Source: Candidatus Omnitrophota bacterium
GTDB taxonomy: Bacteria > Omnitrophota > Gorgyraeia > Zapsychrales > Zapsychraceae
Assembly (NCBI GenBank): GCA_050250375.1
Contig: JBFWOS010000003.1
Span: forward strand, 273,284-337,283
Reading direction: 5' to 3'
DNA length: 64,000 bases
The stretch's first letter is position 1. The number at the start of each line of letters is the position of its first letter. Positions 32,791 through 52,947 of the stretch are shown piece by piece. A program made the translations under genes and the position numbers. Under the pieces are notes generated by a model. That model ran no database searches. It had not been told where the DNA came from and saw only the letters and a list, made by a program, of their open reading frames with translations.

Positions 32791-35700
32791 TTCTTAACCA
32801 TTAAATCCTTATCCGTCTCTGAATAACCCATAAGGAACAACCCGGGGTTGATCATCGGTGTAAACTGGATGATATTGAATTCCATTCCCTGAAAATTAAT
32901 CAGTGGTACGGCCGGGACCGTGAGCGGCGATGTGTCTATTGTGTTACTCTGTATCGTCATGACTTTGCTTTCAGTATTCCTTAAATCAATCCCACCTTTT
33001 TTAGCGGAGGACTGTTGCAGATCTTCGGCTGTTTCTTTCTCAAAATCAGAATAACGCAGTACCCCGTCTGAATTTGTATTGGCCAGAACAGCCATGTCGC
33101 CAAAAACATACCCGAATTTCTCCTGGGTCAAAAGATCTGTTTCCATGGTCAATTCTTCAATCAACTCTTTCCCAAAATGGGCCAGATGCGGTTGTTGTTC
33201 ATCGATTAATTTTTCCAAGGCCCCCAGGTTTTTGACCGGGATAATGAACCGCCAGTCAAGGATACTATCATTGTGTTGGTCGACTTCAAAATCATGGGCC
33301 CCCAATTGTTCAAGTCTCTTGCGGTCGCCTTCATTCAACTCGAGTCCTCCGCCGATGGTATTATACTGGACCGGTTTTCCTGTTTTAACAGGGCCGTGCC
33401 GCATCAGGAGCAGCTTTCCATCAACCATGAATCTAACCCGGCTTTTAACCGTCACGCGGACCTCACCAAATCTTTCCAGCGCATCGCCTCGGTCGTCATA
33501 AACCGTTTTGTGGGGTACCGCAGAAAACAAACGATAACGTTCGGCCATACCCAGCTGGTCAAATTGTTTGAGGACCGGCGGGACATTGCGTGTGATGACG
33601 GCTTCTACAGGTTCGCCTCCGATGGTCGTTTCAAAACGCCCGTTCAAGATTTCTTCATCCGTAGCCAGAATGAACTTCCCGTCGCTACCGCTGGCAGCTT
33701 CACGAAAAATGTCCTCCCCTTCGGGGCTCAATTGCGCGTCATAAACCTTCATGTACGTCACGGAAGGTTTTTTATTGCTCTCGGAATAAAACTGACGCTG
33801 ACCTTCGTAAGATATCGTAACGTGAGGCCCCGTATAAATCGTCTGGCTCAACGGATTAATAAGCCGGTTCGACTTAACGCTGACCTTATCATGAAATTGT
33901 GTTTTCTTGAGAGTTTCATCTTCCATCGCTTTTGTCATCCGCTCGCGTCTTATTTTCCTTAAGGCAAATTTCACTTCAAGGCTCAAGAATATGACGGGAA
34001 TTGTAGCCGGAAAGAGCAACCCTGATAATAAAATTGGGATGCTGAACATCTTCCGGTTTTTGGTCAGATAATTTTTCATTTTTTCGTCAAGTTTGTTTCG
34101 TTCCTCTTCACTTATGTTTTTGTCATTTCTGAAGCGTTCAATGATATTTTCAAAGAAACTGAACTCTTCATCCGGTTCCATATAGGCTAAGTAAGGAAGA
34201 ATTCTTGAAATCACGATGAAATAAACAATCGACAATGAGGCCAAAGACAGGCCGAATACTTCGGGGGTGGTAAATACTTCCGTTATCGTAATATCAGGGA
34301 AACTGGGGAGCCCTAGTTTTTCAAGCACTAAATCTAGAGTTGGGACTATGACAAAGACAGAACTGATGAAAAACAATACTGTATAAATAAATTTCATCGC
34401 CATGCTGAAATTTCTCTGATGCAGGTCGCTGCCGGTGGCAAGGCTGTGCTGAGGCAGGTATTGATAAGAACTATCAATGCTGTCATGTTCATCTCTTAGA
34501 TTTTTTAATTTACGTTCATATAAAGCCGCCCGGAAAATCGGCGGCTGGGAAGAACTGATGATTTTGGCCTGTGCGATCTCCAGGTCTTTAAGCGTATCAG
34601 ACATTTCATCGATGGTAACGAGCACGTCATTGCTGGACCACTCATACAGCGATGTGACCCCGAAGAAATCTCTTAATTTGGCCGCAAGAGTAATCCCGAA
34701 CGGTTTCCATAAAAATCTGCTTTTCGCCTCCTGAAATTGACTTTTCAAGACATAGAGTCCGGTAAAACTGGCCATCAGCAGTCTTACTTGATTAGCGTAT
34801 TGGGCCAGCGTCAGAAAATATTCCTGATATTTCAACAGGTCCGGACTGTTCGCCCGGGTCAGAACCATGTAGCTGTCCAAGGCATATTCCCGGATTTCAT
34901 TATAGTATCCGGCATTCTTCTTAAAATCTCCGATCTTAAGATCCGAGGAATCCATAAACTGCTGGATCCGGGTTACCAGGCGGTTTAGCGGTTCAAGATC
35001 AAGACGCTCGGGATTTTCCTTAAACTGGTCCCATTCGTTCATCAAATCAATGAATCCGTCTTTGCTTACCGCGATTTCAACCGTTTTCTGATCCTGCCCT
35101 TGCGGCTGGAACCCTATCCCCAGGGCTTCAACACCGGCAGGGACATCCTGTACGTTTATGCGGATACCCGTTGGATGATGGTCGACGGAAACCCTGTCCG
35201 GCTCGACTTCTACCCGCCGGCCCTCTTCAATCAAATATAATTTCAACCGAGGATCATCCCCCCCGGCCGCAGTCCCTTGACTATTATTCACAAAAGCCGT
35301 TTGAATATTCTGAAGCATACTCCTTTTATTCCTGAAGAAACTTTCAGCGAATATACGCAATTCGACATGCCCGTTGACCCGGACCGTTTTAACATCATAA
35401 AAACGCGATGATTTCAGACGAAATAACGGCGTCCACCCCTTGGATTTTGGCATGAAATGTCGAGAAAAATAATTCAAAAACTCCCCCTTAACGGAAATTT
35501 TCGATGACTCTGCTTTAATCCCGTTAATATCCGCCCGTGGATCCATGGACTTTAACTTATTCAGTTTCTTTTGATATTCCCTTTCGGTCGCAAAAATAAA
35601 ACTGTTCGGGACAATAAGCCGGGTCAACCCGAAGCTTCCGACTGCCAGCAAAAATGGAATAAATAAATTAATCAAGAACCCCAGATTCCAGAGCACCAGA

Positions 35701-38700
35701 AGGACCGAAACGACATAGGCCCTCCTCCTCCAGATGTCATGGCCGGTAATGCTGTCCGGAAAAGGTTTTTCAAGCCCATCGGTGAACGTATAAAATTCCC
35801 GCTGTAAATTTTCCAATGAGTAAGACTTCCCCGCGACATAATTTTCTTCTCCAAGGATTTCCTCCTCCAACCGGTCCAGACTTCGACGGGAATTGTAATA
35901 ATCAGTAATCGCCGTTAAGGCCTTTCGTTTGGCCCGGCCGAAGGCCAGCTCCGACAGGGAAATCATCCTCGACCACTTGTCCAACGGATAATGGAACAAT
36001 CGGAAACTCAGGTCGTCGCGTGTGGGGAGAAATAAACTCTGATTGGTGTCCAGGGTCGCATTGTGTCCTTTTAACCGCGCAATGACGGTATACTGTAAGG
36101 CGGTTTCCCGAAAGTATTGTTTGAATATTTCTGAAACGTTGTTTTCTTTCTTCATCCTTTCCAACATACCGATGGACAACTCCTGAAGATAAAAATTTGT
36201 TTCAACCGATTTTCCCCTGACGTCTTTAAAAACAACCGGATTCTCCTCACGAAAACGCCTCATCTTTAAAACCCATTCCTCCAGACTCATGATCTCTTTC
36301 AGGCGTTTTGACTGGTCTTTGGCCAGTTCATGCGCGCGTTGGGCCCGTCTCAATTCGCCTTCCAGCATCGAAACCTTCAGGCTTTCCCGTTTTTCCTGAT
36401 CCAGCAGGGATTTACGTTCTTTTTTTAATTCATGCAGCCGTTTTTTGGTCAGGTCTTTTTGTTGTCTGGCTTTACTGCGGTCCAACTCCAATTCTTGTTG
36501 ATGTTCATATAGTTTGTCAGCCGCCAAGGTGGCCCGGAACTGATCCAGAAACTCCTGTAATCTTTCTTCGACAAGCGGTATTTCAAACGCGTCGAACTTT
36601 TCTCCTCTTATTCTGAAACTGACGGACAGGGGATCTCCAGATTTAAACCGGACTCCTTTTTTCCAATCTTTCCGGGAAAGAACCAAATGCAACTTTATGC
36701 TGGTTGTTTTGACTTCCACGTTTGATAGTTTAAGTTCGGTCGGTTTGCCGCGGTTCGCCAGAATTCGGATATCTTTGGATTTAAAAGCCGAAGCAACCGC
36801 ATCCGCCGTTTCCTGTTTGGAATGTTTCCGTCCATTGAGGGCATTCTTGGCTCTTAAAGTCACGATAACCTCCTCTCCCTTAAGCTCAGCAGATATCTGT
36901 TCAAACGCCGTCCTTTTCGACATCAACGCCTCTTTAAGAAAGAGCGTAAAATGATTTTTTTGCCCGCCTTTTAAATAGTCTGAAAATGTTCTGAGAAACG
37001 ATTCCTTGGATGTTTCTGAACGTTCTTTTCCTTTACGGTTCTGGAAAAACACAAATAAAAAAGAAACCATGGCCAGGACGGAAAACACAATCTCGAAGAA
37101 TCTTTGGAAAAAACCTTGTTTGGGTGTTTCCGGTGTCCGATCCGTCACTGGCTCTCTTTCATCCATGATTGGCGAAGTCCTTTCTTGGACCTCTGGCTCA
37201 ACGGATAGATCGTGTTCCGGAATAATTGGTGGTATGTCCGTACGGGGTAGTGGTTGCATCTGTCTTTCCCCTTCAGCCCGTTCCGGCGAGGCTCCACCTG
37301 AAAGATCGGGTAATGCCTGCAGCAACGGTAACGGCTGTCCGGTCAACCGTTGCTGGACCAATTCCGGTAAAATCCCACGGGCCATCTTAAATGTTTGATT
37401 GGTTAATATGAGATCCGGGTTATCAGGGTTGGGAACAATTGTATTGGTTAAGTAATCAACCGCGCCGCCCTCGACCCAGAACGGTTTGGAGAATTCAGAC
37501 TGCCTAAAATTCGCCCGGTCATGTTTCCGGTATGACCGCCGTATATCCTGCAGGATCTCCCCCATGGTGTCCCCCTGTTCAACCTGGATCACCAGGTTTC
37601 CCTGTTGATCGTTCGTATACGTTGCCGCGCTCGCTTGTGAGAGTAACGCCAGATTGCTTAAGGTCAAAAAAACCAGCATGCCGGTTAAGGCGATCGGTTT
37701 TTTAAAATGTGCAGGTAACCCTGAAAAAAGCTTAAACCGCCAGGGGAATTGATAATCGGAGGATGTTCCAGGTTCGGAATTTTCCTTGGACTGGTAGGAA
37801 CGGATCAGTTCACTCGCGCTGACACCAATCGGCTTGAGCTGAATTTTTGTTAATGTCAATTTTTTCTTAAGTTTGTCTAATAAATTGATAACACTGCCGC
37901 CGTACTGCGAAACGGAACGGAAACTCAGCCACTGGGAGGGATTTTTAAAACTGAACCCTCCGCTGAAATACTTGCGCGGGATCACCGACTGGTTTTCATC
38001 CAGGTCTTCTTTGACATAGTTATAAACACCCATTTTGAGGGCCTGGATGTATTGTTCATAGACCTCCTCTTTAATTTCAACGCGGCCGGAATCAATGCCT
38101 TTAATTTTATTCTGGTCTCCATAAAGTTCCGTAATGATATTCCGTTTTAAGTGGCTTTTATACCACAAGGCCAGAATGAGTGAATAATAGACCTGCCGCA
38201 ATGAGGCGAAATGCTCCCCTTCATTGACTTCCTTCTTTAATTCAGGGAGGATGATTTCTTTGATAATCTGGGCAGCAATCTGATTGGATTTGTCCTGATG
38301 TTCCGCATCGTCGGCCGGAACATCCGGTGATAGCCCTGTGCGGAATTCTTGCCGGTGTTCATTGTACCGTGACTGGGCCAGGTAATCTTCCTCAAGCATA
38401 ACATCCAGGCTTGTTTCACTGACAAAGGCCATATTGTCTTTTTCATAAACAACCGCCCTCTCGGGAACGATCCAGATCTTATTGAAATTGTGGATGGGAA
38501 TATCCGTTAAACCGTATCTATCTTCAATCTGTTTATACACACGGCTCCAGAACTCCTGTCCCAATTTTGTTTCCGGATAAGTCATTGACGCAGACAATTG
38601 TTTTAACAGATAATCCTGCAAAAGAAGTTCCCGTCCCAGCTCGGTCTTGACCAGTTGATCGGGAATAATCCGGGACGGCTCATAAGGCGATAAATTAACC

Positions 38701-39041
38701 CACAGTTCATCGACCGGAACGGTTAATGTCGTAAGAAAATATTTAATGAGCGTGTCCGCATCCTGCCGGCTGATTGTTTCCTGATCACCGGAATCGATCA
38801 TAAAATCAATCTCAAAGGGGTTCTGGGGATAAACCCTGATCGCCCTTAAAACAGGATATTGCACCGCGGCCGACGAAGTTATGAGCGTTCCCGGGCTGGT
38901 GAGCATCAACTGGCTGGCCTGAGCCAGGTCGGAAACCAAGACGTTGAATGTAAAACAGTGCAGAAGCACCAGGCAAATAAACTTAAAACCGCGTGAACGG
39001 CGTATATTTCCCAAAGTACCAGGATTATATTTACTTAACAT
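32787..39041 (-). CDS. giant (2084 aa) membrane-associated protein of unknown function
   Basis: Uninterrupted 6.25-kb ORF. N-terminal signal/TM (FKFICLVLLHCFTFNVLVSDLAQASQ). At least seven further dispersed hydrophobic helices (e.g. IALTGMLVFLTLSNLALL; FFEIVFSVLAMVSFLFVFF; YVVSVLLVLWNLGFLINLFIPFLLAVGSFGL; FIYTVLFFISSVFVIVP; MFSIPILLSGLLFPATIPVIFLSL). A Pro/Glu-rich linker (..PLPRTDIPPIIPEHDLSVEPEVQERTSP..) and a long coiled-coil stretch (ELELDRSKARQQKDLTKKRLHELKKERKSLLDQEKRESLK..). No catalytic motif recognised. Confidence 0.7.
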   Translation of the reverse strand: MLSKYNPGTLGNIRRSRGFKFICLVLLHCFTFNVLVSDLAQASQLMLTSPGTLITSSAAVQYPVLRAIRVYPQNPFEIDFMIDSGDQETISRQDADTLIKYFLTTLTVPVDELWVNLSPYEPSRIIPDQLVKTELGRELLLQDYLLKQLSASMTYPETKLGQEFWSRVYKQIEDRYGLTDIPIHNFNKIWIVPERAVVYEKDNMAFVSETSLDVMLEEDYLAQSRYNEHRQEFRTGLSPDVPADDAEHQDKSNQIAAQIIKEIILPELKKEVNEGEHFASLRQVYYSLILALWYKSHLKRNIITELYGDQNKIKGIDSGRVEIKEEVYEQYIQALKMGVYNYVKEDLDENQSVIPRKYFSGGFSFKNPSQWLSFRSVSQYGGSVINLLDKLKKKLTLTKIQLKPIGVSASELIRSYQSKENSEPGTSSDYQFPWRFKLFSGLPAHFKKPIALTGMLVFLTLSNLALLSQASAATYTNDQQGNLVIQVEQGDTMGEILQDIRRSYRKHDRANFRQSEFSKPFWVEGGAVDYLTNTIVPNPDNPDLILTNQTFKMARGILPELVQQRLTGQPLPLLQALPDLSGGASPERAEGERQMQPLPRTDIPPIIPEHDLSVEPEVQERTSPIMDEREPVTDRTPETPKQGFFQRFFEIVFSVLAMVSFLFVFFQNRKGKERSETSKESFLRTFSDYLKGGQKNHFTLFLKEALMSKRTAFEQISAELKGEEVIVTLRAKNALNGRKHSKQETADAVASAFKSKDIRILANRGKPTELKLSNVEVKTTSIKLHLVLSRKDWKKGVRFKSGDPLSVSFRIRGEKFDAFEIPLVEERLQEFLDQFRATLAADKLYEHQQELELDRSKARQQKDLTKKRLHELKKERKSLLDQEKRESLKVSMLEGELRRAQRAHELAKDQSKRLKEIMSLEEWVLKMRRFREENPVVFKDVRGKSVETNFYLQELSIGMLERMKKENNVSEIFKQYFRETALQYTVIARLKGHNATLDTNQSLFLPTRDDLSFRLFHYPLDKWSRMISLSELAFGRAKRKALTAITDYYNSRRSLDRLEEEILGEENYVAGKSYSLENLQREFYTFTDGLEKPFPDSITGHDIWRRRAYVVSVLLVLWNLGFLINLFIPFLLAVGSFGLTRLIVPNSFIFATEREYQKKLNKLKSMDPRADINGIKAESSKISVKGEFLNYFSRHFMPKSKGWTPLFRLKSSRFYDVKTVRVNGHVELRIFAESFFRNKRSMLQNIQTAFVNNSQGTAAGGDDPRLKLYLIEEGRRVEVEPDRVSVDHHPTGIRINVQDVPAGVEALGIGFQPQGQDQKTVEIAVSKDGFIDLMNEWDQFKENPERLDLEPLNRLVTRIQQFMDSSDLKIGDFKKNAGYYNEIREYALDSYMVLTRANSPDLLKYQEYFLTLAQYANQVRLLMASFTGLYVLKSQFQEAKSRFLWKPFGITLAAKLRDFFGVTSLYEWSSNDVLVTIDEMSDTLKDLEIAQAKIISSSQPPIFRAALYERKLKNLRDEHDSIDSSYQYLPQHSLATGSDLHQRNFSMAMKFIYTVLFFISSVFVIVPTLDLVLEKLGLPSFPDITITEVFTTPEVFGLSLASLSIVYFIVISRILPYLAYMEPDEEFSFFENIIERFRNDKNISEEERNKLDEKMKNYLTKNRKMFSIPILLSGLLFPATIPVIFLSLEVKFALRKIRRERMTKAMEDETLKKTQFHDKVSVKSNRLINPLSQTIYTGPHVTISYEGQRQFYSESNKKPSVTYMKVYDAQLSPEGEDIFREAASGSDGKFILATDEEILNGRFETTIGGEPVEAVITRNVPPVLKQFDQLGMAERYRLFSAVPHKTVYDDRGDALERFGEVRVTVKSRVRFMVDGKLLLMRHGPVKTGKPVQYNTIGGGLELNEGDRKRLEQLGAHDFEVDQHNDSILDWRFIIPVKNLGALEKLIDEQQPHLAHFGKELIEELTMETDLLTQEKFGYVFGDMAVLANTNSDGVLRYSDFEKETAEDLQQSSAKKGGIDLRNTESKVMTIQSNTIDTSPLTVPAVPLINFQGMEFNIIQFTPMINPGLFLMGYSETDKDLMVKK

Positions 39042-39074
39042 TTATCAGAACTCTTTCATAAGTTATTTAAGCTA

Positions 39075-39098
39075 AACAAATATTAATATATGTTTGTT
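39075..39098. promoter_or_regulatory. imperfect palindrome AACAAATAT-TAAT-ATATGTTTGTT ~35 nt upstream of the giant ORF start, candidate operator
   Basis: Arms aacaaatat / atatgtttgtt are near reverse complements. It sits in the AT-rich promoter region of the minus-strand giant gene. Confidence 0.3.
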
Positions 39099-39184
39099 AA
39101 ATACTTATGAATGGAAGGTGAACTTCTGGGAAAAATCCTGTGACATTTTTCGTCGGCGGGAATACGATAAGTGCATCCATCATT

Positions 39185-39586
39185 CTATGACGGGGAATCG
39201 GTTTTATCCGTTAGCGGTTTCAGTATTTTGACGATTTCCCTGTCTTCATCAATAAACGAAAATTCGTGCATACGTCCGGGGTCAATCCAACTGATTTCCG
39301 AATGCACACGAAGTTCCGGAAGGCCTTCGGCCCATTGGGCCTGAAAGGCATACAAGACCATATTTCGGCCTCTAAAATATCCTTCTATCTTGCCCAAAAG
39401 TTTCTCGACCTTAACAATGATATTTAATTCCTCTTTCATTTCACGGACAAGACATTGTTCCGGCGTTTCCCCGGATTCGATGTGTCCTCCGGGAAACTCC
39501 CAAAACTGGTCTTTGCTGCGTTTGGCGATGAGGATATGCCCTTCTTTCCAGATAACTCCAGCGGTGGCTATTTTCAGCATATTCAT
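39185..39586 (-). CDS. NUDIX hydrolase (MutT-like)
   Basis: 133 aa. Nudix box GGHIESGETPEQCLVREMKEELNI (GX5EX7REUXEEXGU). Confidence 0.8.
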   Translation of the reverse strand: MNMLKIATAGVIWKEGHILIAKRSKDQFWEFPGGHIESGETPEQCLVREMKEELNIIVKVEKLLGKIEGYFRGRNMVLYAFQAQWAEGLPELRVHSEISWIDPGRMHEFSFIDEDREIVKILKPLTDKTDSPS

Positions 39587-39676: not shown

Positions 39677-40603
39677 TCACCCGTTAAGAAAGGCCCGATC
39701 GAACGACCGGGCCAGGGTCCGCAAAATTTTTCTTTTTTCCTGATACGTATACCCTACAAAACGGATCGTTGGAGTATTATTGGCATCAACAATATAAATC
39801 CTTTGATCAGACCTGTCCCGGACAATATCCAGTTCCCCGCAATCAAACCCCATCCTCTTGCAAAAAAGAATAATTTTACTGACTTCATCGGAACTGAATA
39901 TCTGGCCGGATTCCGTCAAACCCGCTTTGACCGACATACCGAAACGGTCAGTGATCGATTTATATTTCAGAAAAACCAGCGGAATATCTTTATCAAAAAA
40001 AGGAACCCTGAAATCAACAACATAATTCTCATCATCACGGTTATCAATCAGACGCTGGTAGACCTTTCCTTCTACTTTTTCAATCATCGGGCTCAGAATA
40101 ATTCTTCCATCGTGTTTTCCATTCAAGTTCGATTTTTCCACATACGGACCTTGGAAATCCGACGGATTGATCATCAACCGGTACCCGAATACTTCGTTAA
40201 AGACTTCATCGACGCGATTTTTACTTATATCACGGCAGTTATAATTGAGCATTCTATTTTTTTGGGCCAACCGGTTTAGCCGGTCATCATATTGCCCGAA
40301 TGTTCGGTCCTGCCAATTAATACAGAGATCAATCACCCCGTCCTCAGATGGATTCATGTTCAAACCCAATTCACGACACAACCGAATGATCGTATAATCC
40401 CATGGCATCCGGCAAGGGTGGTCGGGATAAAAAAGAATATTTACTGGTTTTCCGGATAGAATTCTTTGAAATCTTCTAGAAACTTTCGGTTGCCGGAGGA
40501 AGAATCGTTTGGCGGCAGCAGGTAAATTCAGGCTGAATCGCAGTGCTTGTTTAACCGGTTGAGGAAGAATTTTCCTTAAGAAATTCAAGAAAAATTCTTT
40601 CAT
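39677..40603 (-). CDS. ATP-grasp-like protein (possibly TupA-type), unknown substrate
   Basis: 308 aa. The C-terminal ELDIVRDRSDQRIYIVDANNTP resembles the ATP-grasp Mg-binding E/D-x-N strand. Overlaps the upstream OCD-family gene by 4 nt. Assignment by eye only. Confidence 0.45.
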   Translation of the reverse strand: MKEFFLNFLRKILPQPVKQALRFSLNLPAAAKRFFLRQPKVSRRFQRILSGKPVNILFYPDHPCRMPWDYTIIRLCRELGLNMNPSEDGVIDLCINWQDRTFGQYDDRLNRLAQKNRMLNYNCRDISKNRVDEVFNEVFGYRLMINPSDFQGPYVEKSNLNGKHDGRIILSPMIEKVEGKVYQRLIDNRDDENYVVDFRVPFFDKDIPLVFLKYKSITDRFGMSVKAGLTESGQIFSSDEVSKIILFCKRMGFDCGELDIVRDRSDQRIYIVDANNTPTIRFVGYTYQEKRKILRTLARSFDRAFLNG

Positions 40604-41589
40604 TGATTAGCCTTCTTTAATCGATGAAACAGGAAATGACAGATCAGGGCGTCCTGCACGGCCGTTCCTGTTGAAATGAAAAGCACTTTCTCACGCTTTT
40701 TTTTCGTGGATGTTACAATTTTACGAAGTTCAACAATGTCGGTCTTGTCCATCAACCCATCGTCATGCCATCTTTTCATATCCCCAAAATGAATATTCTG
40801 ACGAGATTCACTCACGATAGTCCACTTCCCAGCAAATCCCGGATCAATCTCTGATAAATTATCCGCATCCGCTCCGACACTGGAAATAAAATTGATATCC
40901 CCGGCATCAGAAATTTTCAGTACGGGTTTCCGGGACGTGGTTGACAAAAACAAGGCCGTACTTTGCCGGCAGATCACTTTCATGGTCACCGGCTTGATTT
41001 CCATACTCCTGTCCAACAACTTTTTAAATTCCGAAACTCGTTTTTGATGGTGATCATACACATATATGGTGTCTAACCCGCACCAGCGGGATAAAATAAA
41101 AGCCGTATAATATCCTATTCGGCCCGCTCCCACTACCCCCACCGTTTCCTTCTCTAAAGTACCGGCATGTTTAAAAGCCAGCACACTCAAGGCGGCTGTC
41201 CTGAACGACGAGAGGGCGCAGACATCAAATAAGGCTTCAACAAAATTGTCAGTCGCATTGATCAACATGGCTTTACCAACACAAATTTTATCTGGAACCA
41301 CCCGTTCCTCTTCATTGGTCCCGATCACTTTGACCGCCTTGATGGTCTGTCCTTCAAATGGATGGATGACACAGGGCATGACCCTAAAGTCTCCTTTAAA
41401 GCACCCATTGGTAAAAACTTCCTTTTTCGGCTGGTGAACGAGCTTGGAGTTAATCCGCCACTCCCGATAAAATTTCTCCAGGGTATCCATAAACTCAGGT
41501 GTGTGTTTGACTAAGGCCTCATGAATCTGTCGTTCTCTAAAATATTGGCATGGTTCATCATGCAGACGTAAATGTTTAAAACTGTTCAT
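40600..41589 (-). CDS. ornithine cyclodeaminase/mu-crystallin (OCD) family NAD-dependent enzyme
   Basis: 329 aa. OCD-family blocks ..ALSSFRTAALSVLAFKH.. (compare ..TALRTAA.SALA.K.L) and Rossmann GVVGAGRIGYYTAF. Confidence 0.7.
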   Translation of the reverse strand: MNSFKHLRLHDEPCQYFRERQIHEALVKHTPEFMDTLEKFYREWRINSKLVHQPKKEVFTNGCFKGDFRVMPCVIHPFEGQTIKAVKVIGTNEEERVVPDKICVGKAMLINATDNFVEALFDVCALSSFRTAALSVLAFKHAGTLEKETVGVVGAGRIGYYTAFILSRWCGLDTIYVYDHHQKRVSEFKKLLDRSMEIKPVTMKVICRQSTALFLSTTSRKPVLKISDAGDINFISSVGADADNLSEIDPGFAGKWTIVSESRQNIHFGDMKRWHDDGLMDKTDIVELRKIVTSTKKKREKVLFISTGTAVQDALICHFLFHRLKKANQ

Positions 41590-41612
41590 GGCATAAAGTA
41601 TATCACCCCCTT

Positions 41613-42017
41613 TTGGAAATTCCCAAAATTATGTTAGACTTAATTTCTATGCAAATACACACTCAGAAAAATATTCCACCAAGGCTTAAATTTGGAATTT
41701 TGTTGCTTGCAGTCCAAATAATTTTGATCGTGCTGGCCAGGTTCACTGAAGCTAGGTATTTTTGCTGGGCCCCGCATGATTCACAGAATGACTATGTGCT
41801 TCATGTCACAGTGAACGAACAGCCATTAAGTGCTGATGCCATCTATACCCGTTACCGCCTGTACAAAAATGGACGCGACCCGCGTTCAATCCAGCATGTG
41901 AAAGATGTCTTGTCTCGGTATGAGAAAACCCTCGGGAAAGACCAGCCCGCACAGATCACTTTAACTTACACAACCAACGGCATTAAACAACCAGTATGGA
42001 AATGGCCCATCCCGTAA
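41613..42017 (+). CDS. hypothetical membrane-anchored protein
   Basis: 134 aa, one N-terminal TM (KFGILLLAVQIILIVLARF). Overlaps the next ORF by 22 nt in another frame. Confidence 0.4.
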   Translation: MEIPKIMLDLISMQIHTQKNIPPRLKFGILLLAVQIILIVLARFTEARYFCWAPHDSQNDYVLHVTVNEQPLSADAIYTRYRLYKNGRDPRSIQHVKDVLSRYEKTLGKDQPAQITLTYTTNGIKQPVWKWPIP

Positions 42018-43084
42018 AGAATCCCTTTTCGCTGAATAGTGATGAATTGCCGCCTTCGGTAATTCTAATGGTCAAGGTTATTGCCCTGAGTCTATTGTTA
42101 AAAGGGTATTTGTTCCAGATGTCCGATCACTTTGTCCCACTCGTCCCCATTTTTGATTACTTTGGCCCGCCAGCCCTGTTCCGGTTAATTTTACAAGCAG
42201 TCTTTTTGTTCTCCACCATCTCCATACTCTTCACATATAAAATCCGGTTAAACTGCCTTTTGCTGGGATCTGTCTTCTTAATTGTCCCAATGTCTTCTAT
42301 TGTCAGTTATCTGAACGCAAAAGTTTTTTGCGGATTTATATTTTTAATGGCCGGTCTGCACAGAAAAGGGGAAAATCCCTGGCTTATCCGTTTACAGGTG
42401 TCGTTGGTGTATTTCGGTTCGGGTTTAAATAAGCTGCTTGATCCGGACTGGCTTTCTGGACAATACTTTGAATACTGGATGCATGAAATTATCATTAATA
42501 AAAAATATATTATGGCCGCCTCTTACTTACCTCCTATGTTATTATCCAAACTCATGGGCTGGTTAACCATAATAGGAGAATTTGTGATTTCAGTCTTCTT
42601 AACATCTAAGCGATATTATTCATTAGCGATTTGGATGGGTATATGTTTTCACACGACAGCATTGGTCATGACATGGATGGATTATGGAATTTTTACGATC
42701 GCGATACTAATGTCGTATCTGTGTTTTATCCGTTGGCCGGAAATGATTGAGATTACAGTCAATCCCGACAGGAGTCTTCATATTCTCCTAAAAAATATTC
42801 TTTCTAGAATGGATTGTGACAAAAGGATCATCTGGCGGGAAGCAACCGATCCGACATTATCCGTTACAGTGAATAAAATCATCTTCCGAGGGTTTATCGG
42901 GTTTAAAAAAATTGTTCTTTATTCTCCGGTATTTTATTTTTTGATGGCCATTCTCTTGAGTGGAACACAGGGGTATGTCAATTCGTTTCAAATCAGGATG
43001 GTTGAACTGATATTTTTATTTTTTCTTCCGGTTCCTGAAATGATTAGTTTATCTCAAAAATATAAACGAACTGTTTTCACTTAA
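41996..43084 (+). CDS. multi-pass membrane protein, HTTM-like N-terminal region with a DUF393/DCC-like C-terminal tail lacking the CxxC
   Basis: 362 aa. ~7 TM helices, then a soluble segment (..RMDCDKRIIWREATDP..KIIFRGFIGFKKIVLYSP..) reminiscent of the DCC thiol-disulfide oxidoreductase fold but without its CxxC. Tentative. Confidence 0.4.
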   Translation: MEMAHPVKNPFSLNSDELPPSVILMVKVIALSLLLKGYLFQMSDHFVPLVPIFDYFGPPALFRLILQAVFLFSTISILFTYKIRLNCLLLGSVFLIVPMSSIVSYLNAKVFCGFIFLMAGLHRKGENPWLIRLQVSLVYFGSGLNKLLDPDWLSGQYFEYWMHEIIINKKYIMAASYLPPMLLSKLMGWLTIIGEFVISVFLTSKRYYSLAIWMGICFHTTALVMTWMDYGIFTIAILMSYLCFIRWPEMIEITVNPDRSLHILLKNILSRMDCDKRIIWREATDPTLSVTVNKIIFRGFIGFKKIVLYSPVFYFLMAILLSGTQGYVNSFQIRMVELIFLFFLPVPEMISLSQKYKRTVFT

Positions 43085-43698
43085 ACTTCTTTCTTTAAAT
43101 CAAAAATCTTCTCAAGCCAAATAAAACCCAGATAAAAAATGCCGGCCATATATCCGGCAGCATGAGAACCGGGAACGGCCCGGACAGAAAGGTCGGTAAA
43201 GATTGTTTCATGGGTTGACAGTTCAAAAAATATCTTGGCCACCGTTGCCAATAAAATACCCAGACACATCTTTTCTCCGGTCCGTTTATATTGCGTAACG
43301 GCCGCCAAAACCAACATTCCATTTAATGCACCGGACAAACCGCAATAACTGCTGAACTTAGTTTCAATAAAAAACATCCAGCCGCTGACGGCCAGACAGC
43401 TGACAAAGAGGCAGGGCAGGAAATGACGGGGATTATTGAGTTCAATCACCGAACCGATGACGAGAAAAGCCAACAGATCCCACAATAGATGTTGAAAATT
43501 ACAATGCACGAAATGCGCGGTAAACAACCGCCAGAATTCACCCTGCGCGATCAGCGTTTTATCAAACAAAAGACTGTTGAACAAAATTTGTCCGGACAGA
43601 TATAAGCCGATCATGCCCAGGGTTAACATCACAGTCAGCCACGGCACCTTGAGGGTGCCGCGGCTTTTTTCTTTTTGGAATAGATGGATGTTCATCAT
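43081..43698 (-). CDS. short rhomboid-family intramembrane serine protease, rhombosortase-like
   Basis: 205 aa. EFWRLFTAHFVHCNFQHLLWDL (rhomboid helix 2), catalytic GLSGALNG (GxSG) and HAAGYMAG (His). The size and position directly after a GlyGly-CTERM protein fit rhombosortase. Confidence 0.8.
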   Translation of the reverse strand: MMNIHLFQKEKSRGTLKVPWLTVMLTLGMIGLYLSGQILFNSLLFDKTLIAQGEFWRLFTAHFVHCNFQHLLWDLLAFLVIGSVIELNNPRHFLPCLFVSCLAVSGWMFFIETKFSSYCGLSGALNGMLVLAAVTQYKRTGEKMCLGILLATVAKIFFELSTHETIFTDLSVRAVPGSHAAGYMAGIFYLGFIWLEKIFDLKKEV

Positions 43699-43700
43699 AA

Positions 43701-45803
43701 TTAAACCTTATCTTCTTTTCGTTTCCTTAATCCCCATAATAACGGAGAAAACAAGAGCACTGCGCCGGGACCAAACGCCCCGCCGCCACCGGCATACGTA
43801 GGCTGATTTCCACTGAACATCGGTTGCTGCGTATCCACGCGATAAGATTGGGCCGGTTGAGCGGAACGAACCTGACGGGCCTGGTATTCCGTTTTTAATC
43901 GCTGCTGATTACGCCGGTCAATCCCCAATTCCTGATACACCTCTTCTTTTAAAACAATCATGGACGTGTAATCGGTGACCAGTGAATACTCTACACCGAG
44001 ATCCACCACACTTTGTTTCTTGTCGGCAGTCTCGCCAAAATCATCCATTTGCTGGATCAGTTCTTCAATGGACGCGTAAGCCCATAATCGTTCGATCTCC
44101 GGGTTCGTGGTTGCCGCTTCCGGAAAATTAAATCGTGTGGAATAAGATTTATCCAGACCGGAAATCTTCCCCTGCAACGTCACCTCGGCCGGTCCAGATC
44201 CAAAATAGTGGCCGAAAACAATCAACTGTTGTCCTCGGTAAACACTGCCGATGGAGGACGGGTTTATATCCGCGGTTTTAACCCCGTTGATCTTAACCTG
44301 TGCGCCGTGTAACGCCTGAAAATTGACCTTGCTCTGGGCCTCGAGGATTTTTCCGATAATATCATCGGAATTGGAAACATTGATCGCGAAGCCGTTCGTC
44401 TCCCGGGTTAACGCATTCAATAACGGTTCATTCGCGCTATTGCCCATAATGTAAGTAAACAAACGAATGTCGTATTTCTTGATCATTTCAATAAAGCCCT
44501 TTTGTTCCGTCACCCCGACATTGGCAACTCCGTCGGTCACCAGCAAAATGCTGGAGGTGCGGTCAGAGTCTAGGCTTTTTAGTCCAAGTTGAAGGCCCCC
44601 ATAAAGATTGGTCCCGTTATTCGGACTTACGGTAGAAACGGCATTGATGTAATGATTCACATTCTGCGCCGTAGCCGTGACAAAACCGTTCGTCAACTCT
44701 CTCGCCGTATCATTAAACAGGACAATGCGAAACCGGTCTTCGGGTTTCATGGTTTTCAAAGCCCGGGATACCCCCTCGGCCAATGTCGCGTACTTCCCTT
44801 GCATTGAACCGGAAATATCCAGGACAAAAACCCAGTCGCGTCCTTCCACAATCGGCTGTAAATCCATGCCCGGGGTAATTGTCAGCATAAACGTTCCGCG
44901 CTGTGATGTTGCTTCTTTAAAGGCCACGAGGTCAACGCTTCCGGGAAGATTTTCAGCGTGACGATAATAGATGGCGATATCCGTGTCCAGCCTGAAATTC
45001 GGATCAGCCTGGACTGTCGGTAAAGGCGTGTCGTCACCGCTATTACTCTGGTTAATGGTCAGCGTTGAAGGATCCGCTTGAGCACTGCTTGAACGGATAA
45101 GATGGTTGTCCAGGTGGATCATCCATTCACCATTATTGTTTGTTATCTGCGCCTGCGGGTGGTTCGGCAGCCGCACGTCGGCAACCGGGTAGGCAGACTT
45201 TAAAACAAGGTCAAAACTGAATGTCCCGCTGACCTTATCATTGGTCTTCCAAAAGGCCAGGGCCGCGTCATCCACGCCTCCCTCTTCAAGCGGATACAAA
45301 TAACGGCCAATGCCGGTGTCGACATGGGCCGGCTGGATGTAACTGATCCTGACCTTGGTCTGCTGATTGGCCCTGACGGGTGAGACACTCATCTCAAATG
45401 TCTTGTAATCATTTTTTTCGGTTAGCCCGGCATCATTATTTTTTGATTTCTGCTCTTCATAGACTTCGCGGGCTTTTTTCTTTTCGAGGACTTCACCGCT
45501 GATCGGCTTTCCATCAATCCACATCGTAAATTCTGAAACCGCCCCTTTTTTCGGAACAGGGAACGAATAAATGGCCTCAAGATCCTGTCCGTTCGGGTTA
45601 TAAAAAGTCTGGTCAACCGTCGTGATCGCGTAACCGTCTTCAACAACCACATGAACCTGATGATCTTTGATCTGCAATTCGGGCAGACCGGAATCCTTGG
45701 GCGTCAAAAGTCCGGCGGCCTGCGCGGAACCGGTGAGGATCAAGAACATGATACCGGCAGCCAGCCCGCCTCCTCTCCTGAGTTTTGTTTGTTGAGTTTT
45801 CAT
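43701..45803 (-). CDS. secreted VIT-domain + von Willebrand factor A protein with C-terminal GlyGly-CTERM sorting signal
   Basis: 700 aa. Signal peptide. VIT-like N-domain (..VVEDGYAITTVDQTFYNPNGQDLEAIYSFPVPKKGAVSEFTMWIDGK..). vWA with MIDAS DISGSM..T. C-terminus GGGGAFGPGAVLLFSPLLWGLRKRKEDKV (Gly-Gly, hydrophobic helix, basic tail). Stop is 2 nt from the rhombosortase start. Confidence 0.85.
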   Translation of the reverse strand: MKTQQTKLRRGGGLAAGIMFLILTGSAQAAGLLTPKDSGLPELQIKDHQVHVVVEDGYAITTVDQTFYNPNGQDLEAIYSFPVPKKGAVSEFTMWIDGKPISGEVLEKKKAREVYEEQKSKNNDAGLTEKNDYKTFEMSVSPVRANQQTKVRISYIQPAHVDTGIGRYLYPLEEGGVDDAALAFWKTNDKVSGTFSFDLVLKSAYPVADVRLPNHPQAQITNNNGEWMIHLDNHLIRSSSAQADPSTLTINQSNSGDDTPLPTVQADPNFRLDTDIAIYYRHAENLPGSVDLVAFKEATSQRGTFMLTITPGMDLQPIVEGRDWVFVLDISGSMQGKYATLAEGVSRALKTMKPEDRFRIVLFNDTARELTNGFVTATAQNVNHYINAVSTVSPNNGTNLYGGLQLGLKSLDSDRTSSILLVTDGVANVGVTEQKGFIEMIKKYDIRLFTYIMGNSANEPLLNALTRETNGFAINVSNSDDIIGKILEAQSKVNFQALHGAQVKINGVKTADINPSSIGSVYRGQQLIVFGHYFGSGPAEVTLQGKISGLDKSYSTRFNFPEAATTNPEIERLWAYASIEELIQQMDDFGETADKKQSVVDLGVEYSLVTDYTSMIVLKEEVYQELGIDRRNQQRLKTEYQARQVRSAQPAQSYRVDTQQPMFSGNQPTYAGGGGAFGPGAVLLFSPLLWGLRKRKEDKV

Positions 45804-45836
45804 TTTCTGCTCCTCCTTTAAATTAACTGATTAATT

Positions 45837-45853
45837 GTTTACCATTCAACTAT
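45837..45853. promoter_or_regulatory. candidate MarR operator copy 1 (GTTTACCATTCAACTAT) in the promoter region of the VIT-vWA/rhombosortase operon
   Basis: The same 17-mer is found in the marR promoter at 46365-46381. Here it lies between the marR stop (45875) and the vWA gene start (45803). Confidence 0.5.
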
Positions 45854-45874
45854 TTAACCAAAAAAAATGACCGG

Positions 45875-46339
45875 TTATTTCTTTTCAAACCATTCAGTTA
45901 ATAACCCGGCTAACTGCTTTTGTTTATCCTGGTTTAAACCACTAACGGCCTGTTTCAACTGGACCAGATATTTATCCCAGATCCGGGTCAGCAGATCAGC
46001 CCCCTTTTTAGTGATCTTGATCAAATTTACCCTGCGGTCTCCTTCCAATTCCAACCGCATGACCAATCCATCACTTTCCAGTTTATCCAGCATCTTGGTC
46101 ATATTGGACGGAGTAACGATCAAATGTTCGCTGATCTCCACCTGCCGGATACCTTCATCCCCCCCATGGTGCTGAATGGCGATCAGGATATTCAACTTTC
46201 CAATGGAAAGACCATAACTCTTCAGGAAATTGGTGATATCCGTACTAATGACATTATAGAGAAGGGCCAGGGAATATATAATTTCTTCCGGGTATTTCCC
46301 CTCACCTTTTGGTACTCCGAATTTCTTAATATCTGCCAT
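45875..46339 (-). CDS. MarR-family transcriptional regulator
   Basis: 154 aa. Winged-HTH core ..LNILIAIQHHGGDEGIRQVEISEHLIVTPSNMTKMLDKLESDGLVMR..DRRVNLIKITKKG. Confidence 0.8.
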   Translation of the reverse strand: MADIKKFGVPKGEGKYPEEIIYSLALLYNVISTDITNFLKSYGLSIGKLNILIAIQHHGGDEGIRQVEISEHLIVTPSNMTKMLDKLESDGLVMRLELEGDRRVNLIKITKKGADLLTRIWDKYLVQLKQAVSGLNQDKQKQLAGLLTEWFEKK

Positions 46340-46361
46340 TACAATTTCCTTTCACTTGTTG

Positions 46362-46381
46362 ATAGTTTACCATTCAACTAT
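46362..46381. promoter_or_regulatory. candidate MarR operator copy 2: inverted repeat ATAGTT-TACCATTC-AACTAT immediately upstream of marR
   Basis: 6-bp arms are perfect reverse complements. It shares 17 nt with the site at 45837-45853. Confidence 0.5.
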
Positions 46382-46428
46382 TAACTTGTCAATAGCTAAC
46401 TTCTGCTTTTCTTCAAAATTATCTATTT

Positions 46429-47853
46429 TCAAATCTCTTCCGCCAAATCATCCGGGCGGATTACTTTTAAATTGAGATTTTTCCGGCGGTTGACGTATCC
46501 GTATAATATTCGAAAAACATCCAGGTCAAACCGGCCGTTGCATGGAAACAAATTCTCTTTCTGGTCCATATCATACCGGAAGGCGTTCTGAATGATCCAG
46601 CTATCTATAATAATGACTTCCCCTTTTGTCTTATCCTCATTGTGCTCTTCGATCATGAGCGCCCCATCAAAGGGCCATTCCAATCTCTGTTTTTCCAGGA
46701 ACGCCTCTTTCAGCCGTAAATTATATTTCAAGGAACTTTCCTTTTGTATGCAGGCCCCTTTGCACTGATTAATCTGATAATAAAAGCAGGAATCGTCTGA
46801 TTTTGACTTTTCAAGATTCAGCAAGGTCTTGCACAATTTGTATTCCCTGGCCAGATTTTCCAAATAACGCTGGGTATCGCGTTTGGTCCTAAAAACGGCC
46901 AGAATATTCTTGAGGTCTTCTTTACAGATTTCTTCACGCCCTTCAAAATAAATTTTATGGTATTCCTCTGAATCGTCTAATTTCACAACGGTCAATTGCA
47001 AGTTGCGCCGGGATCGTTTGTTATAAAGCGGAAATTGCGTCTTGATATAATAAGATTCCAATAATAATGCCGCCAATTCACCCTGCGTCTGAACAATGGT
47101 GATCCCGGTCACGTTTCTTGATAAATCAATTTCCTGGTTGGAGTGAAGTGTGTTATTAAAATGAGCCATAATCCGGGTGCGTAAATTTTTGGCCTTGCCG
47201 ATGTAAAGCGGAACTCCTGCCTCATTCAGGAAAAAATATACCCCCGGCAGTTCCGGAATATCATCAATATCTGTTTTTAAGTGCGGCGGAAGGGCTGGTT
47301 GACGGATGATTTCTTCGATGGCCAGCGATTGTTTTTCAAGAGAGGTTTTTTCCTGCACAACCTGAAGGAAACCCCAGACGACTCTGGCATCATCCAGGGC
47401 CCGGTGCCTGTTTTCGACTTCAATCCCGTAGCGCTGCATGATCGATGAAACATCATGCCGTTTGAATTTCGGAAATAATTTCCGTGAAAGTTTAAGGCTG
47501 CAGAGGATCTTAGATTTATACCGGATTCCCAGCCTCTCAAATTCCTGCCGGATAAACCCGTAATCAAAACGGGCGTTATGCGCGACAAAGACAGATCCTT
47601 CCAGAAATTCATAAATTGATTCATGCAGGACGCTGAATGTCGGCGCTTTACCGACCATTTCATTGGTTATCCCCGTCAAGGTTGTAATATTGGCCGGGAT
47701 TTGGCATTGCGGGTCAATCAGGGACTGAAACTCTTCCACCTTTCGGCCGTTGACAACTTTGATCATCCCTATTTCAATGATCCGGTGATTATGATACCGG
47801 CCGCCCGTCGTTTCGATATCCGTAATAACGAGTGGAATTTCATTTAGAGTCAT
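46429..47853 (-). CDS. DnaQ-like 3'-5' exonuclease (DEDDh) fused to a GIY-YIG (UvrC/Cho-like) nuclease domain
   Basis: 474 aa. Exo I VITDIETTG, Exo II FVAHNARFDYGF, Exo III HRALDDAR. Mid-protein GIY-YIG PGVYFFLNEAGVPLYIGKAKNLRTRIMAHF. Architecture as in mycobacterial Cho-like proteins. Confidence 0.8.
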   Translation of the reverse strand: MTLNEIPLVITDIETTGGRYHNHRIIEIGMIKVVNGRKVEEFQSLIDPQCQIPANITTLTGITNEMVGKAPTFSVLHESIYEFLEGSVFVAHNARFDYGFIRQEFERLGIRYKSKILCSLKLSRKLFPKFKRHDVSSIMQRYGIEVENRHRALDDARVVWGFLQVVQEKTSLEKQSLAIEEIIRQPALPPHLKTDIDDIPELPGVYFFLNEAGVPLYIGKAKNLRTRIMAHFNNTLHSNQEIDLSRNVTGITIVQTQGELAALLLESYYIKTQFPLYNKRSRRNLQLTVVKLDDSEEYHKIYFEGREEICKEDLKNILAVFRTKRDTQRYLENLAREYKLCKTLLNLEKSKSDDSCFYYQINQCKGACIQKESSLKYNLRLKEAFLEKQRLEWPFDGALMIEEHNEDKTKGEVIIIDSWIIQNAFRYDMDQKENLFPCNGRFDLDVFRILYGYVNRRKNLNLKVIRPDDLAEEI

Positions 47854-51438: not shown

Positions 51439-52947
51439 TTATTTCAAATATACCGCGGGGAGGTACGTCTTCCAGAAAGTCCGTTTCCACCACTGGCCGG
51501 TTTCTCTCTTCTCGTCTGGCGAAGTAAATTCATAATAATATAATTTGGCCCGCAGGTATTTGGGAGGAGTCTCTTCGAAAGGATTGTGGGCCAGAAGTTT
51601 AATGACCGTTGGTTCATTCTTGGCCAAACGTTCCAGCATATTCAAAAACCACGGGCTGTGTTGCACATTCCCGCTGAGCGCGGCAAACCACATCTGCCAG
51701 TCGATCCGCGGCTGGAATGGCGCGACCTGCGGCGGACGCCGGTTCAAATCACCGGGTTTGTATTTAAATTCATACGCGTCCCAAAATCTTCCGTCGTGGC
51801 TGCCTTCAATAATGATCTCGGGACGTTTGGTGGTCATCACGGCAAAAAGGCCATATCCGTTGGATAATAAAAACGGGTCGGCCTCCTTTTCAATGCGTTT
51901 TAAAATATCCGGCACCGCTTTGCTCCCCCCCATCATCCGGACCATAATATTCACATTCAGAACACAGACGATCACGGCCACAGAGAAACAGATCCACGTC
52001 TTGATTAAATCAGACCATCGGGGAGGATAAAGGCCGGTCCGTTCCGGCTTGAGACGGGCCATAACCTGGACCGACCAGATCTTCGCAAAAGACTTGTCAT
52101 CGATCAGAAGCACGCACAGGACGATCATGAGCAGATTAAAAAAGCAATAATTCCCCGTGGCCAGGATCAGCCCCTGAAGCCCGACCAGAGGAAAGATGGC
52201 GGCCAGCCGCATGCGCCGGCCCATAAAAATCCAGAACGGGACAAAAATTTCAATCACAAACATCATAAAACACGAAAATTTGTGAAGCCATAACGGTAAA
52301 TGATGAACGTACCAGCTCACCGGATTCGGGATCGGCTGTGTCCAGTAATGATACGTTAACGCCGTTAAATCCCTCCAGGTTTTGTCGTGGCTCATCCATT
52401 TGACGAAACCGGACTGCACCATTACCTTAAACAGAACAATATACAACAACAGCAGGATCACCCGGGGCAGTTTGGATTTAGCCGAACTGAGCCGTAACCC
52501 CCAGGGGCTGAAAAAAATACTTAAGAACCCGATTTCAACCAGCAGGATGTCCCATTGAAAACTCATGAACGCCTGCCCGATATAAATAAAGGAGAGATAA
52601 AGTCCCCAAAGAAAAAAACAGCACACGGCCGGAAGAAAACCGGCCATCAATACAACCGAAAAGGCCATCCCCAGATAACAGGCAAAAATCAAAAATGAAT
52701 CCGACGAATTCAGCCAGAATATCGTCAGCTGTTTTAAATAACAGTCCGGACCAAAATATTCCTGTACCGCCTTGAGATAGTCTTGAACCGGGAGGATCCC
52801 CTCACGGCCCCACAGTCCCTGGGCCTGGAGCAGGAGAGAAAAAAACGCGAGGAAATAAATGCCGCCTAAAAGGCGCAGGAACAGATTGCGGGCGACATAA
52901 AACTGCCTTTTCTCATCATCTTTTTTTTGAACAAAAGTTTCGTCCAT
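51439..52947 (-). CDS. lipase maturation factor (LMF/DUF1222) family membrane protein
   Basis: 502 aa. Multi-TM N-terminal half and a conserved C-terminal domain with ..RIDWQMWFAAL..SPWFLNMLERL.. and ..KLYYYEFT..WWKR.., characteristic of LMF-family proteins. Confidence 0.65.
   Translation of the reverse strand: MDETFVQKKDDEKRQFYVARNLFLRLLGGIYFLAFFSLLLQAQGLWGREGILPVQDYLKAVQEYFGPDCYLKQLTIFWLNSSDSFLIFACYLGMAFSVVLMAGFLPAVCCFFLWGLYLSFIYIGQAFMSFQWDILLVEIGFLSIFFSPWGLRLSSAKSKLPRVILLLLYIVLFKVMVQSGFVKWMSHDKTWRDLTALTYHYWTQPIPNPVSWYVHHLPLWLHKFSCFMMFVIEIFVPFWIFMGRRMRLAAIFPLVGLQGLILATGNYCFFNLLMIVLCVLLIDDKSFAKIWSVQVMARLKPERTGLYPPRWSDLIKTWICFSVAVIVCVLNVNIMVRMMGGSKAVPDILKRIEKEADPFLLSNGYGLFAVMTTKRPEIIIEGSHDGRFWDAYEFKYKPGDLNRRPPQVAPFQPRIDWQMWFAALSGNVQHSPWFLNMLERLAKNEPTVIKLLAHNPFEETPPKYLRAKLYYYEFTSPDEKRETGQWWKRTFWKTYLPAVYLK

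Follow-up and report, generated by a model that had tools for sequence, protein, structure and literature searches.

A MarR gene with two putative operators precedes a vWA-rhombosortase gene pair in Candidatus Omnitrophota

We analysed a 64-kb stretch of a Candidatus Omnitrophota metagenome-assembled genome, referred to below as the window and numbered from its first letter, in which the open reading frames (ORFs) place three genes head to tail on the minus strand: a marR regulator gene, a gene for a protein with VIT and vWA domains (the cargo), and a rhombosortase gene (rrtA). These genes probably make up a surface-protein cassette under the control of MarR, which would act at two predicted operators, one in the marR promoter (O1) and the other between marR and the vWA gene (O2). 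The predicted gating of the vWA-rhombosortase pair by MarR is well supported by comparison with related loci, which are cited here by locus label. ORF families were assigned from Pfam and NCBIfam/TIGR hidden Markov model (HMM) scores relative to curated or gathering cutoffs. The gene order, the family memberships, the catalytic residues, the conservation of the cargo tail, and the conservation and specificity of the operator sequences are all direct results of the computation. The features of the cassette, in window positions, were as follows.

45875-46339, minus strand: marR, 154 amino acids, PF01047.
43701-45803, minus strand: VIT+vWA cargo gene, 700 amino acids, PF08487 plus PF13768/PF00092.
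43081-43698, minus strand: rhombosortase gene (rrtA), 205 amino acids, TIGR03902.
46364-46392, minus strand: marR promoter, with a -35 TTGACA (46392-46387), a 17-nucleotide spacer and a TG-extended -10 TAAACT (46369-46364).
46362-46381, minus strand: O1, putative MarR operator, a perfect 6+8+6 palindrome ATAGTT-TACCATTC-AACTAT in the spacer/-10 of the marR promoter.
45870-45910, minus strand: weak hairpin at the 3' end of marR, -9.4 kcal/mol, right before the T-run.
45860-45867, minus strand: T8 run (A8 on the plus strand) directly after the marR stop codon.
45834-45853, minus strand: O2, putative second operator ATAGTTGAATGGTAAACAAT, with the exact 17-mer discussed below inside it and arms 5/6 complementary; it follows the T-run and precedes the vWA ribosome-binding site.
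45812-45818, minus strand: vWA ribosome-binding site AAGGAGG, by direct sequence reading.

The two putative operators share a 17-mer, GTTTACCATTCAACTAT, which occurs exactly twice in the window, at 45837-45853 and 46365-46381, as an earlier, sequence-only reading of this DNA had noticed. No further match with up to three mismatches was found in the window, where 0.30 would be expected by chance, and the similarity between the two copies reaches 32 nucleotides at 84% identity. That reading had also placed one copy in a perfect ATAGTT-N8-AACTAT repeat of the marR promoter and the other in the promoter region of the vWA and rhombosortase genes; the positions bear this out, the first copy lying between the -35 TTGACA and the -10 TAAACT, and the second in the 71-bp gap between marR and the vWA gene, where O2 sits 15 nucleotides upstream of the vWA ribosome-binding site. 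In a consensus scan, the marR promoter agreed with the sigma-70 consensus at 10 of 12 positions and carried a TG ahead of the -10; its TTGACA -35, its spacing and its TAAACT -10 recur throughout the MarR subfamily to which the window protein belongs.

To score candidate sites independently of the window, we used a 22-nucleotide operator weight matrix trained on other loci only, with the window genome and its 86%-identical relative left out. It gave 33.0 bits for O1 and 32.1 bits for O2, compared with 11.4 bits for the next best site in the window and a maximum of 16.2 bits after shuffling, and across control loci from outside Omnitrophota, 625 kb in all, only one match scored 14 bits or more. 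Because the matrix finds just two sites in the window, the 17-mer is not a common intergenic repeat within the sequence available; a search for extra copies had been proposed earlier as a check on this point, and none stood above background in the 64-kb window. The same arrangement was found throughout the subfamily, with O1 upstream of marR in 29 of the 29 loci having upstream sequence, and a run of seven or eight T residues followed by O2 in 24 of the 27 loci having downstream sequence, whatever gene follows. In the distant clade represented by L109, O2 becomes a perfect palindrome, ATAGTTGATTAATCAACTAT, that is, ATAGTTGA-N4-TCAACTAT, and the promoter site becomes TTGACAAGTCAACTAT, overlapping the -35; in L118, O2 is the perfect palindrome ATAGTTGAATATTCAACTAT.

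The marR product matched PF01047 with 43.9 bits (gathering cutoff 24.6), and the solved structures nearest to it are all of MarR-family proteins. None of the NCBIfam equivalogs reached its cutoff on this protein, the best being BilQ with 48.7 bits against 125. The subfamily comprises 180 homologs at E<=1e-15, every named one of which comes from Candidatus Omnitrophota, and a metagenome scan with the MarR alignment yielded 27 loci. The marR-vWA-rhombosortase trio was present in about 10 distinct Omnitrophota loci with differing flanking genes (L002, L082/83, L084/85, L086/87/L103, L095, L098, L099, L113, L118 and the window), and its order persists though the vWA proteins of the Omnitrophota relatives are just 65-70% identical to the window cargo. 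The proposal of MarR autoregulation, with the cargo controlled as well from a second operator, thus gains comparative support from the trio in about 10 loci and from the conservation of both operator positions.

Three vWA loci lacked an adjoining marR (L088, L116 and L117). In L088 (3681-3866) and L116 (3710-3860) a complete marR-type promoter with O1 is followed by about 110 nucleotides without an ORF and then by the T-run and O2; it appears that marR was deleted from these loci and its sites were kept. In L117 the T-run and a palindrome, ATAGTTCATATATCAACTAT, are kept. Two further variations were seen in the region between marR and the vWA gene. Several relatives have a small ORF, 49-77 amino acids long and with one hydrophobic stretch, that separates the second operator from the vWA gene (L086 3749-3982; L084/L085 3744-3893; L002 about 2180-2420; L095 693-878); it had no Pfam match, and it is absent from the window and from L082. 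In L095 and L096 the unit of T-run plus operator is present as a tandem duplicate, with a two-codon mini-ORF (ATG AAT TAA) in between.

The cargo protein itself has the domain structure expected from its family. All its domain matches were above the gathering scores (VIT PF08487, 119.9 bits; VWA PF13768, also called VWA_3, 56.6 bits; PF00092, 49.9 bits), and the parts of the protein and its gene were as follows.

Residues 1-29, 45717-45803, minus strand: Sec-type signal peptide, read from the sequence, ...LTGSAQA|AG.
Residues 45-155, minus strand: VIT domain, by Pfam.
Residues 325-481, minus strand: vWA domain, by Pfam, with the metal ion-dependent adhesion site (MIDAS) D329-x-S331-x-S333.
43704-43796, minus strand: C-terminal tripartite tail YAGGGGAFGPGAVLLFSPLLWGLRKRKEDKV, consisting of a Gly motif, a Pro-containing hydrophobic helix and a basic cluster.

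The MIDAS is intact: in a 40-sequence alignment D329, S331, T398 and D424 were invariant, and S333 was nearly so. The protein database held 3376 cargo homologs at E<=1e-10, the best 120 of which were 58-100% identical to the window protein and came from Omnitrophota, Thermodesulfobacteriota and Gammaproteobacteria, identity between phyla being 58-70%; a Gly-rich motif, a hydrophobic helix and a basic cluster end nearly all of these best 120. In the window protein these parts read GGGG / AFGPGAVLLFSPLLWGL / RKRKEDKV at the extreme C-terminus, and G673, G675 and P687 of the tail were invariant in the 40 aligned homologs. The sequence-only reading had called this a classic GlyGly-CTERM tail. The tripartite architecture agrees with that description, but the HMM scores do not, as the generic model TIGR03501 did not match it. 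The MprA_tail model TIGR03867 scored 12.8-13.4 bits on the cargo tail against a cutoff of 19.7, and TIGR03501 on the aligned tails of proteobacterial orthologs was borderline at 13.8-19.5 bits (cutoff 15.5); two Omnitrophota tails had no TIGR03501 score. Since TIGR03501 gives no match, membership rests on architecture, homology and the adjoining rhombosortase, and from these sequence comparisons we conclude that the cargo tail is a divergent GlyGly-CTERM. The cargo was also considered as an LPXTG protein of TIGR03788, the marine proteobacterial sortase target family, and rejected, as it scored 206 bits, far under the cutoff of 551.65, and has no LPXTG and a Gly-rich tail instead.

The 205-residue product of the downstream gene matched the rhombosortase model TIGR03902 with 122.4 bits against a cutoff of 84, and the GlpG models were far under their own cutoffs. 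In an alignment with E. coli GlpG, its GLSG (Ser122) and GSHAAG (His179) fell on the catalytic Ser and His of GlpG (GLSG and GAHIAG), and the WR motif was kept, EFWR aligning with the EFWR of GlpG; the Asn position of the GlpG HxxxN motif is occupied by Asp. The protein has six hydrophobic stretches. Its gene starts 2 nucleotides after the vWA stop codon, and among 80 genome loci drawn from several phyla, 58 have a rhomboid gene immediately 3' of the vWA gene. The model score, the GlpG alignment and the 2-nucleotide spacing together confirm the earlier assignment of a rhomboid with a GxSG/His dyad next to its cargo as a rhombosortase arrangement.

This pair of cargo and enzyme is itself a known kind of system and is not new. 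Haft & Varghese 2011 (PMC3237569) described a 'vault homolog' VIT/vWA family with GlyGly-CTERM tails, whose sister proteins carry LPXTG or PEP-CTERM, and found that where a genome has just one target, its gene lies beside that of the rhombosortase (16 of 21 genomes). The novelty of the locus, argued earlier from VIT-vWA proteins being usually sortase/LPXTG or PEP-CTERM cargo, therefore fails, since GlyGly-CTERM vault homologs with an adjacent rhombosortase were already in that paper. No second GlyGly-like tail was found among the window ORFs, which answers an earlier call for a search for other such proteins and fits the published 'dedicated system' pattern (PMC3237569). The window system shares with those systems a single VIT/vWA target beside a TIGR03902 rhombosortase; it differs in coming from Candidatus Omnitrophota, in a tail that misses TIGR03501, and in a linked regulator, a subject not discussed in PMC3237569.

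Two other systems are useful for comparison. The rhombosortase of V. cholerae serves many targets encoded far from the enzyme, with a protease as cargo and export that depends on type II secretion, whereas the window has one adjoining vWA cargo, and secretion-system genes were not identified among its annotated ORFs. The V. cholerae protein VesB has a tripartite C-terminal domain, is cut by rhombosortase at the Gly motif and is retained at the surface, and its new C-terminus gains a glycerophosphoethanolamine-containing moiety (Gadwal et al. 2018, PMC6219818). The proteobacterial dedicated sortase system (TIGR03788) resembles the window system in having a homologous VIT+vWA cargo and one enzyme for one cargo; the window differs from it in that the sorting enzyme is a rhomboid protease, not a sortase, and in that the cargo has no LPXTG. 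The dedicated sortase system carries dedicated regulators too.

Several observations weigh against the reading of the locus as a MarR-gated surface-protein cassette. At least 12 other loci have an unrelated envelope gene 3' of a marR gene of the same subfamily and share the two operator positions, and some of the MarR proteins of these loci are closer to the window MarR (59-72% identity) than are those of other vWA loci (about 51-62%). The genes after marR included Peptidase_C92 (L093 and L101, and by ORF similarity L102 and L107), Peptidase_M28 (L094), an Aas-like enzyme with acyltransferase and AMP-binding domains (L092), DUF2157 (L112), and small membrane proteins or lipoproteins (L091, L097, L104 and L109). 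The central 8 nucleotides of the operator, GAATGGTA, are strongly conserved yet non-palindromic, and they overlap the TGn extended -10, so that part of their conservation could reflect promoter function, not MarR contacts. O2 lacks a recognisable -35, and in some relatives it is within 10-20 nucleotides of the start codon. In the window, the hairpin ahead of the T-run is not significant when compared with shuffled sequence (z = -0.18). O1 and O2 were scarcely more alike within a genome than between genomes, with 16.4 and 15.7 matches of 22, respectively (P about 0.006, from loci that are not independent and in a test made conservative by one site being one base out of register), and L097 and L098 were discordant in this co-variation. 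At the level of the cargo, TIGR03501 did not match the tail at E<=10 (cutoff 15.5 bits), and type II secretion genes were not found among the window ORFs scanned against Pfam.

One consequence is clear. Because the MarR subfamily also precedes unrelated genes, MarR is not rhombosortase-specific; such a regulator is ruled out by the occurrence of the same subfamily and the same operators before those genes, and to that extent the earlier interpretation of a MarR-gated rhombosortase cargo does not stand, given the 12 or more loci in which envelope genes of other kinds take the place of the vWA gene. An intrinsic terminator after marR in the window was also rejected, given a fold no better than shuffled. 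Hairpins ending at the T-run were stronger in relatives, with -17.1 kcal/mol in L082, -14.5 in L104, -16.2 in L111 and -25.9 in L109, against shuffle means of -6 to -9.

The conserved centre of the operator raises the question of whether the 17-mer was duplicated chiefly as an element of the promoter, a TG-extended -10 with its spacer, so that the locus would simply have the same type of promoter twice and the palindromic ends would be incidental. The best-conserved core, TTGAATGGTAAAC, is indeed asymmetric and contains TGGTAAACT, which is TGn plus a -10, and O2 keeps the extended -10-like core TGGT(A/T)AAC in most main-clade loci. We nevertheless consider this explanation improbable, because none of the other promoters in the 64-kb window has the motif, which also has essentially no matches in the 625 kb of control loci and is strictly tied to this MarR subfamily, and because in L109, L108 and L118 O2 is a perfect 20-bp palindrome without a -10-like hexamer; moreover, O2 has no -35 and is in some loci too near the start codon for a normal leader. 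A still weaker case can be made for the two repeats as remnants of a mobile marR cassette, with marR governing itself or distant genes and its adjacency to vWA-rrtA accidental. Direct repeats do bracket marR, the same marR unit stands before many unrelated genes, and marR is cleanly gone from between both sites in L088 and L116. Against this, the sites are palindromic and have the size usual for MarR operators, O1 is precisely integrated in a sigma-70 promoter, O2 is always on the side of the downstream gene and beside its ribosome-binding site, the order marR-vWA-rrtA is kept in Omnitrophota relatives with 65-70% identical vWA proteins, and among the genes called in the Omnitrophota loci retrieved, none encoded a transposase or an integrase. 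We regard it as very unlikely.

A more serious competitor concerns the manner in which O2 would work. O2 might be a roadblock or enhancer of termination, with vWA-rrtA transcribed by read-through from the marR promoter only and O2-bound MarR stalling RNA polymerase past the T-run. In many loci a hairpin and a T7-8 run lie directly upstream of O2, in several O2 is very near the downstream ribosome-binding site or start codon, and O2 has no -35; in L088 and L116, which lack marR, the marR-type promoter, the T-run and O2 remain upstream of vWA. The hairpin, on the other hand, is weak or absent in several loci, the window included. On balance we hold this mode of action to be possible, though doubtful.

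The reading we prefer, that of a cassette gated by MarR, can be put as a model in which DNA binding, the direction of regulation, cleavage, lipid attachment and surface localisation are inferred steps. We propose that a MarR-family dimer would bind the 20-bp palindrome at O1 and at O2, and that MarR on O1 would block the marR promoter, giving autorepression. A ligand or a modification would release MarR, so that marR, the vWA gene and the rhombosortase gene, which is predicted to be translationally coupled, would be turned on together. At O2, MarR could act by overlap with a weak promoter of the vWA gene's own, lacking a -35, or by a block on read-through from the marR promoter; both modes are possible. 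The cargo would be exported via Sec by means of its signal peptide and would stay tethered to the inner membrane through its C-terminal helix, until the dedicated rhombosortase cut it at the Gly-rich motif, by analogy with VesB (PMC6219818). By the same analogy, a glycerophosphoethanolamine-containing anchor may be added to the new C-terminus of the cargo, and the cargo may come to be displayed at the cell surface; there the vWA domain, with its MIDAS, could mediate metal-dependent ligand binding.

The regulatory part of this model would follow a familiar plan. In E. coli MarR at marO, as in other autoregulated MarR repressors, a palindromic operator lies in the repressor's own promoter and a second copy lies by the ribosome-binding site. 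The window locus resembles E. coli marO in having an operator between -35 and -10, a second copy by a ribosome-binding site, and co-directional downstream genes that would be under control; it differs in that the second site is 3' of marR, after the T-run, and not in the same promoter region, and in that the named members of the subfamily are from Omnitrophota. Autoregulation by MarR together with a second operator before the neighbouring genes is a standard design.

Outside Omnitrophota, the orthologous vWA-rhombosortase pair was found with a regulator of a different family. In 57 non-Omnitrophota genome loci a divergent TetR-family gene lies 140-750 bp upstream of the pair; upstream sequence of at least 900 nucleotides was available for about 69 loci. 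These loci (among L003-L081) are from Pseudomonadota, Desulfobulbia and other phyla; examples are L003 2735-3623 and L024 1506-2393. Exact TGAAC-N3-GTTCA palindromes occurred in 123 copies in the 57 TetR-vWA intergenic regions, being present in 54 of them and usually numbering 2-4 in each; there were none in the remaining 454 kb of the TetR loci and none in the window. The linked TetR proteins had weak similarity to FasR, FadR and MtrR, and about 10 further loci had another helix-turn-helix gene upstream. The TetR-linked cassettes and the window cassette are alike in their orthologous cargo (57-62% identity), adjoining rhombosortase, dedicated one-component predicted repressor and multiple candidate operators. 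They differ in that the former have a divergent TetR gene and TGAAC-N3-GTTCA, and the Omnitrophota cassette a co-directional MarR gene and ATAGTT-N8-AACTAT. From the recurrence of these arrangements we conclude that the vWA-rhombosortase module habitually comes with a putative local repressor and several copies of its predicted operator, and that MarR is the Omnitrophota version. In the literature we found nothing relevant on a connection of rhombosortase with either MarR or TetR, nor on vWA or rhomboid proteins in Omnitrophota.

The genes on either side of the cassette in the window varied among relatives. On the 5' side of marR, window 46429-47853 encodes a 474-amino-acid fusion of a DnaQ-type 3'-5' exonuclease and a GIY-YIG/Cho-like nuclease; this gene ends 90 nucleotides short of the marR start and is outside the cassette, and other genes are found there in relatives. 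On the other side, four genes at window 39677-43084 lie between the rhombosortase gene and a NUDIX gene. They encode a 308-amino-acid protein without a family match, an ornithine cyclodeaminase/mu-crystallin homolog, a 134-amino-acid protein, and a 362-amino-acid DoxX/MauE/SdpB-like membrane protein, the gene for the last converging on the rhombosortase gene with a 4-nucleotide overlap. The close relative L082 is without all four, with NUDIX directly after the rhombosortase gene, and by this comparison the four-gene block looks like an insertion. Window 32787-39586 contains the small NUDIX hydrolase gene (about 39185-39586, minus strand) and then an ORF of 2084 amino acids, in which Pfam recognises just one domain, a SMODS-associated NUDIX domain at the C-terminus (37.7 bits), the remainder having no annotation. 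A bacterial homolog of lipase maturation factor (LMF1 and LMF1_C, about 183 bits each) and an MBOAT-family membrane O-acyltransferase were found at window 51439-52947 and 56870-58363. A scan of 42900-46600 on both strands against Rfam gave no RNA family match at E<=1.

Genes that resemble those of lysophospholipid recycling recur beside the cassette or under the MarR subfamily (L117 1-2771, L118 1-1886 and L092 1614-3863), in the form of a fusion of MFS, acyltransferase and AMP-binding domains (LplT/Aas-like) and of the Aas-like enzyme. They may be relevant, because rhombosortase products in Vibrio gain a glycerophosphoethanolamine-containing anchor. We tentatively suggest, as a broader interpretation that is less likely to hold than the cassette itself, that the unit of marR promoter-operator, marR, T-run and second operator could be a self-contained Omnitrophota cassette that was repeatedly recruited before envelope genes (vWA-rhombosortase, C92 and M28 peptidases, an Aas-like lysophospholipid acyltransferase, DUF2157 and other membrane proteins) and displaced TetR, and that display of the vWA protein might be ligand-gated everywhere, possibly by an envelope or lipid signal. 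Hints of such a signal come from the weak FadR/FasR similarity of the TetR proteins and from the LplT/Aas-like genes that adjoin the MarR cassette or are placed under it.

These results extend the dedicated rhombosortase system to Candidatus Omnitrophota, a phylum known here from metagenome assemblies. The new part is the regulation, that is, a MarR cassette with a variable downstream gene and its TetR counterpart elsewhere, and it is incremental; the window system does not change the understanding of rhombosortases or of MarR proteins, and the regulatory addition is sound but fairly ordinary. What it does offer, in two defined predicted operators and two repressor families, is a handle on the signal for a widespread and highly conserved surface vWA protein.

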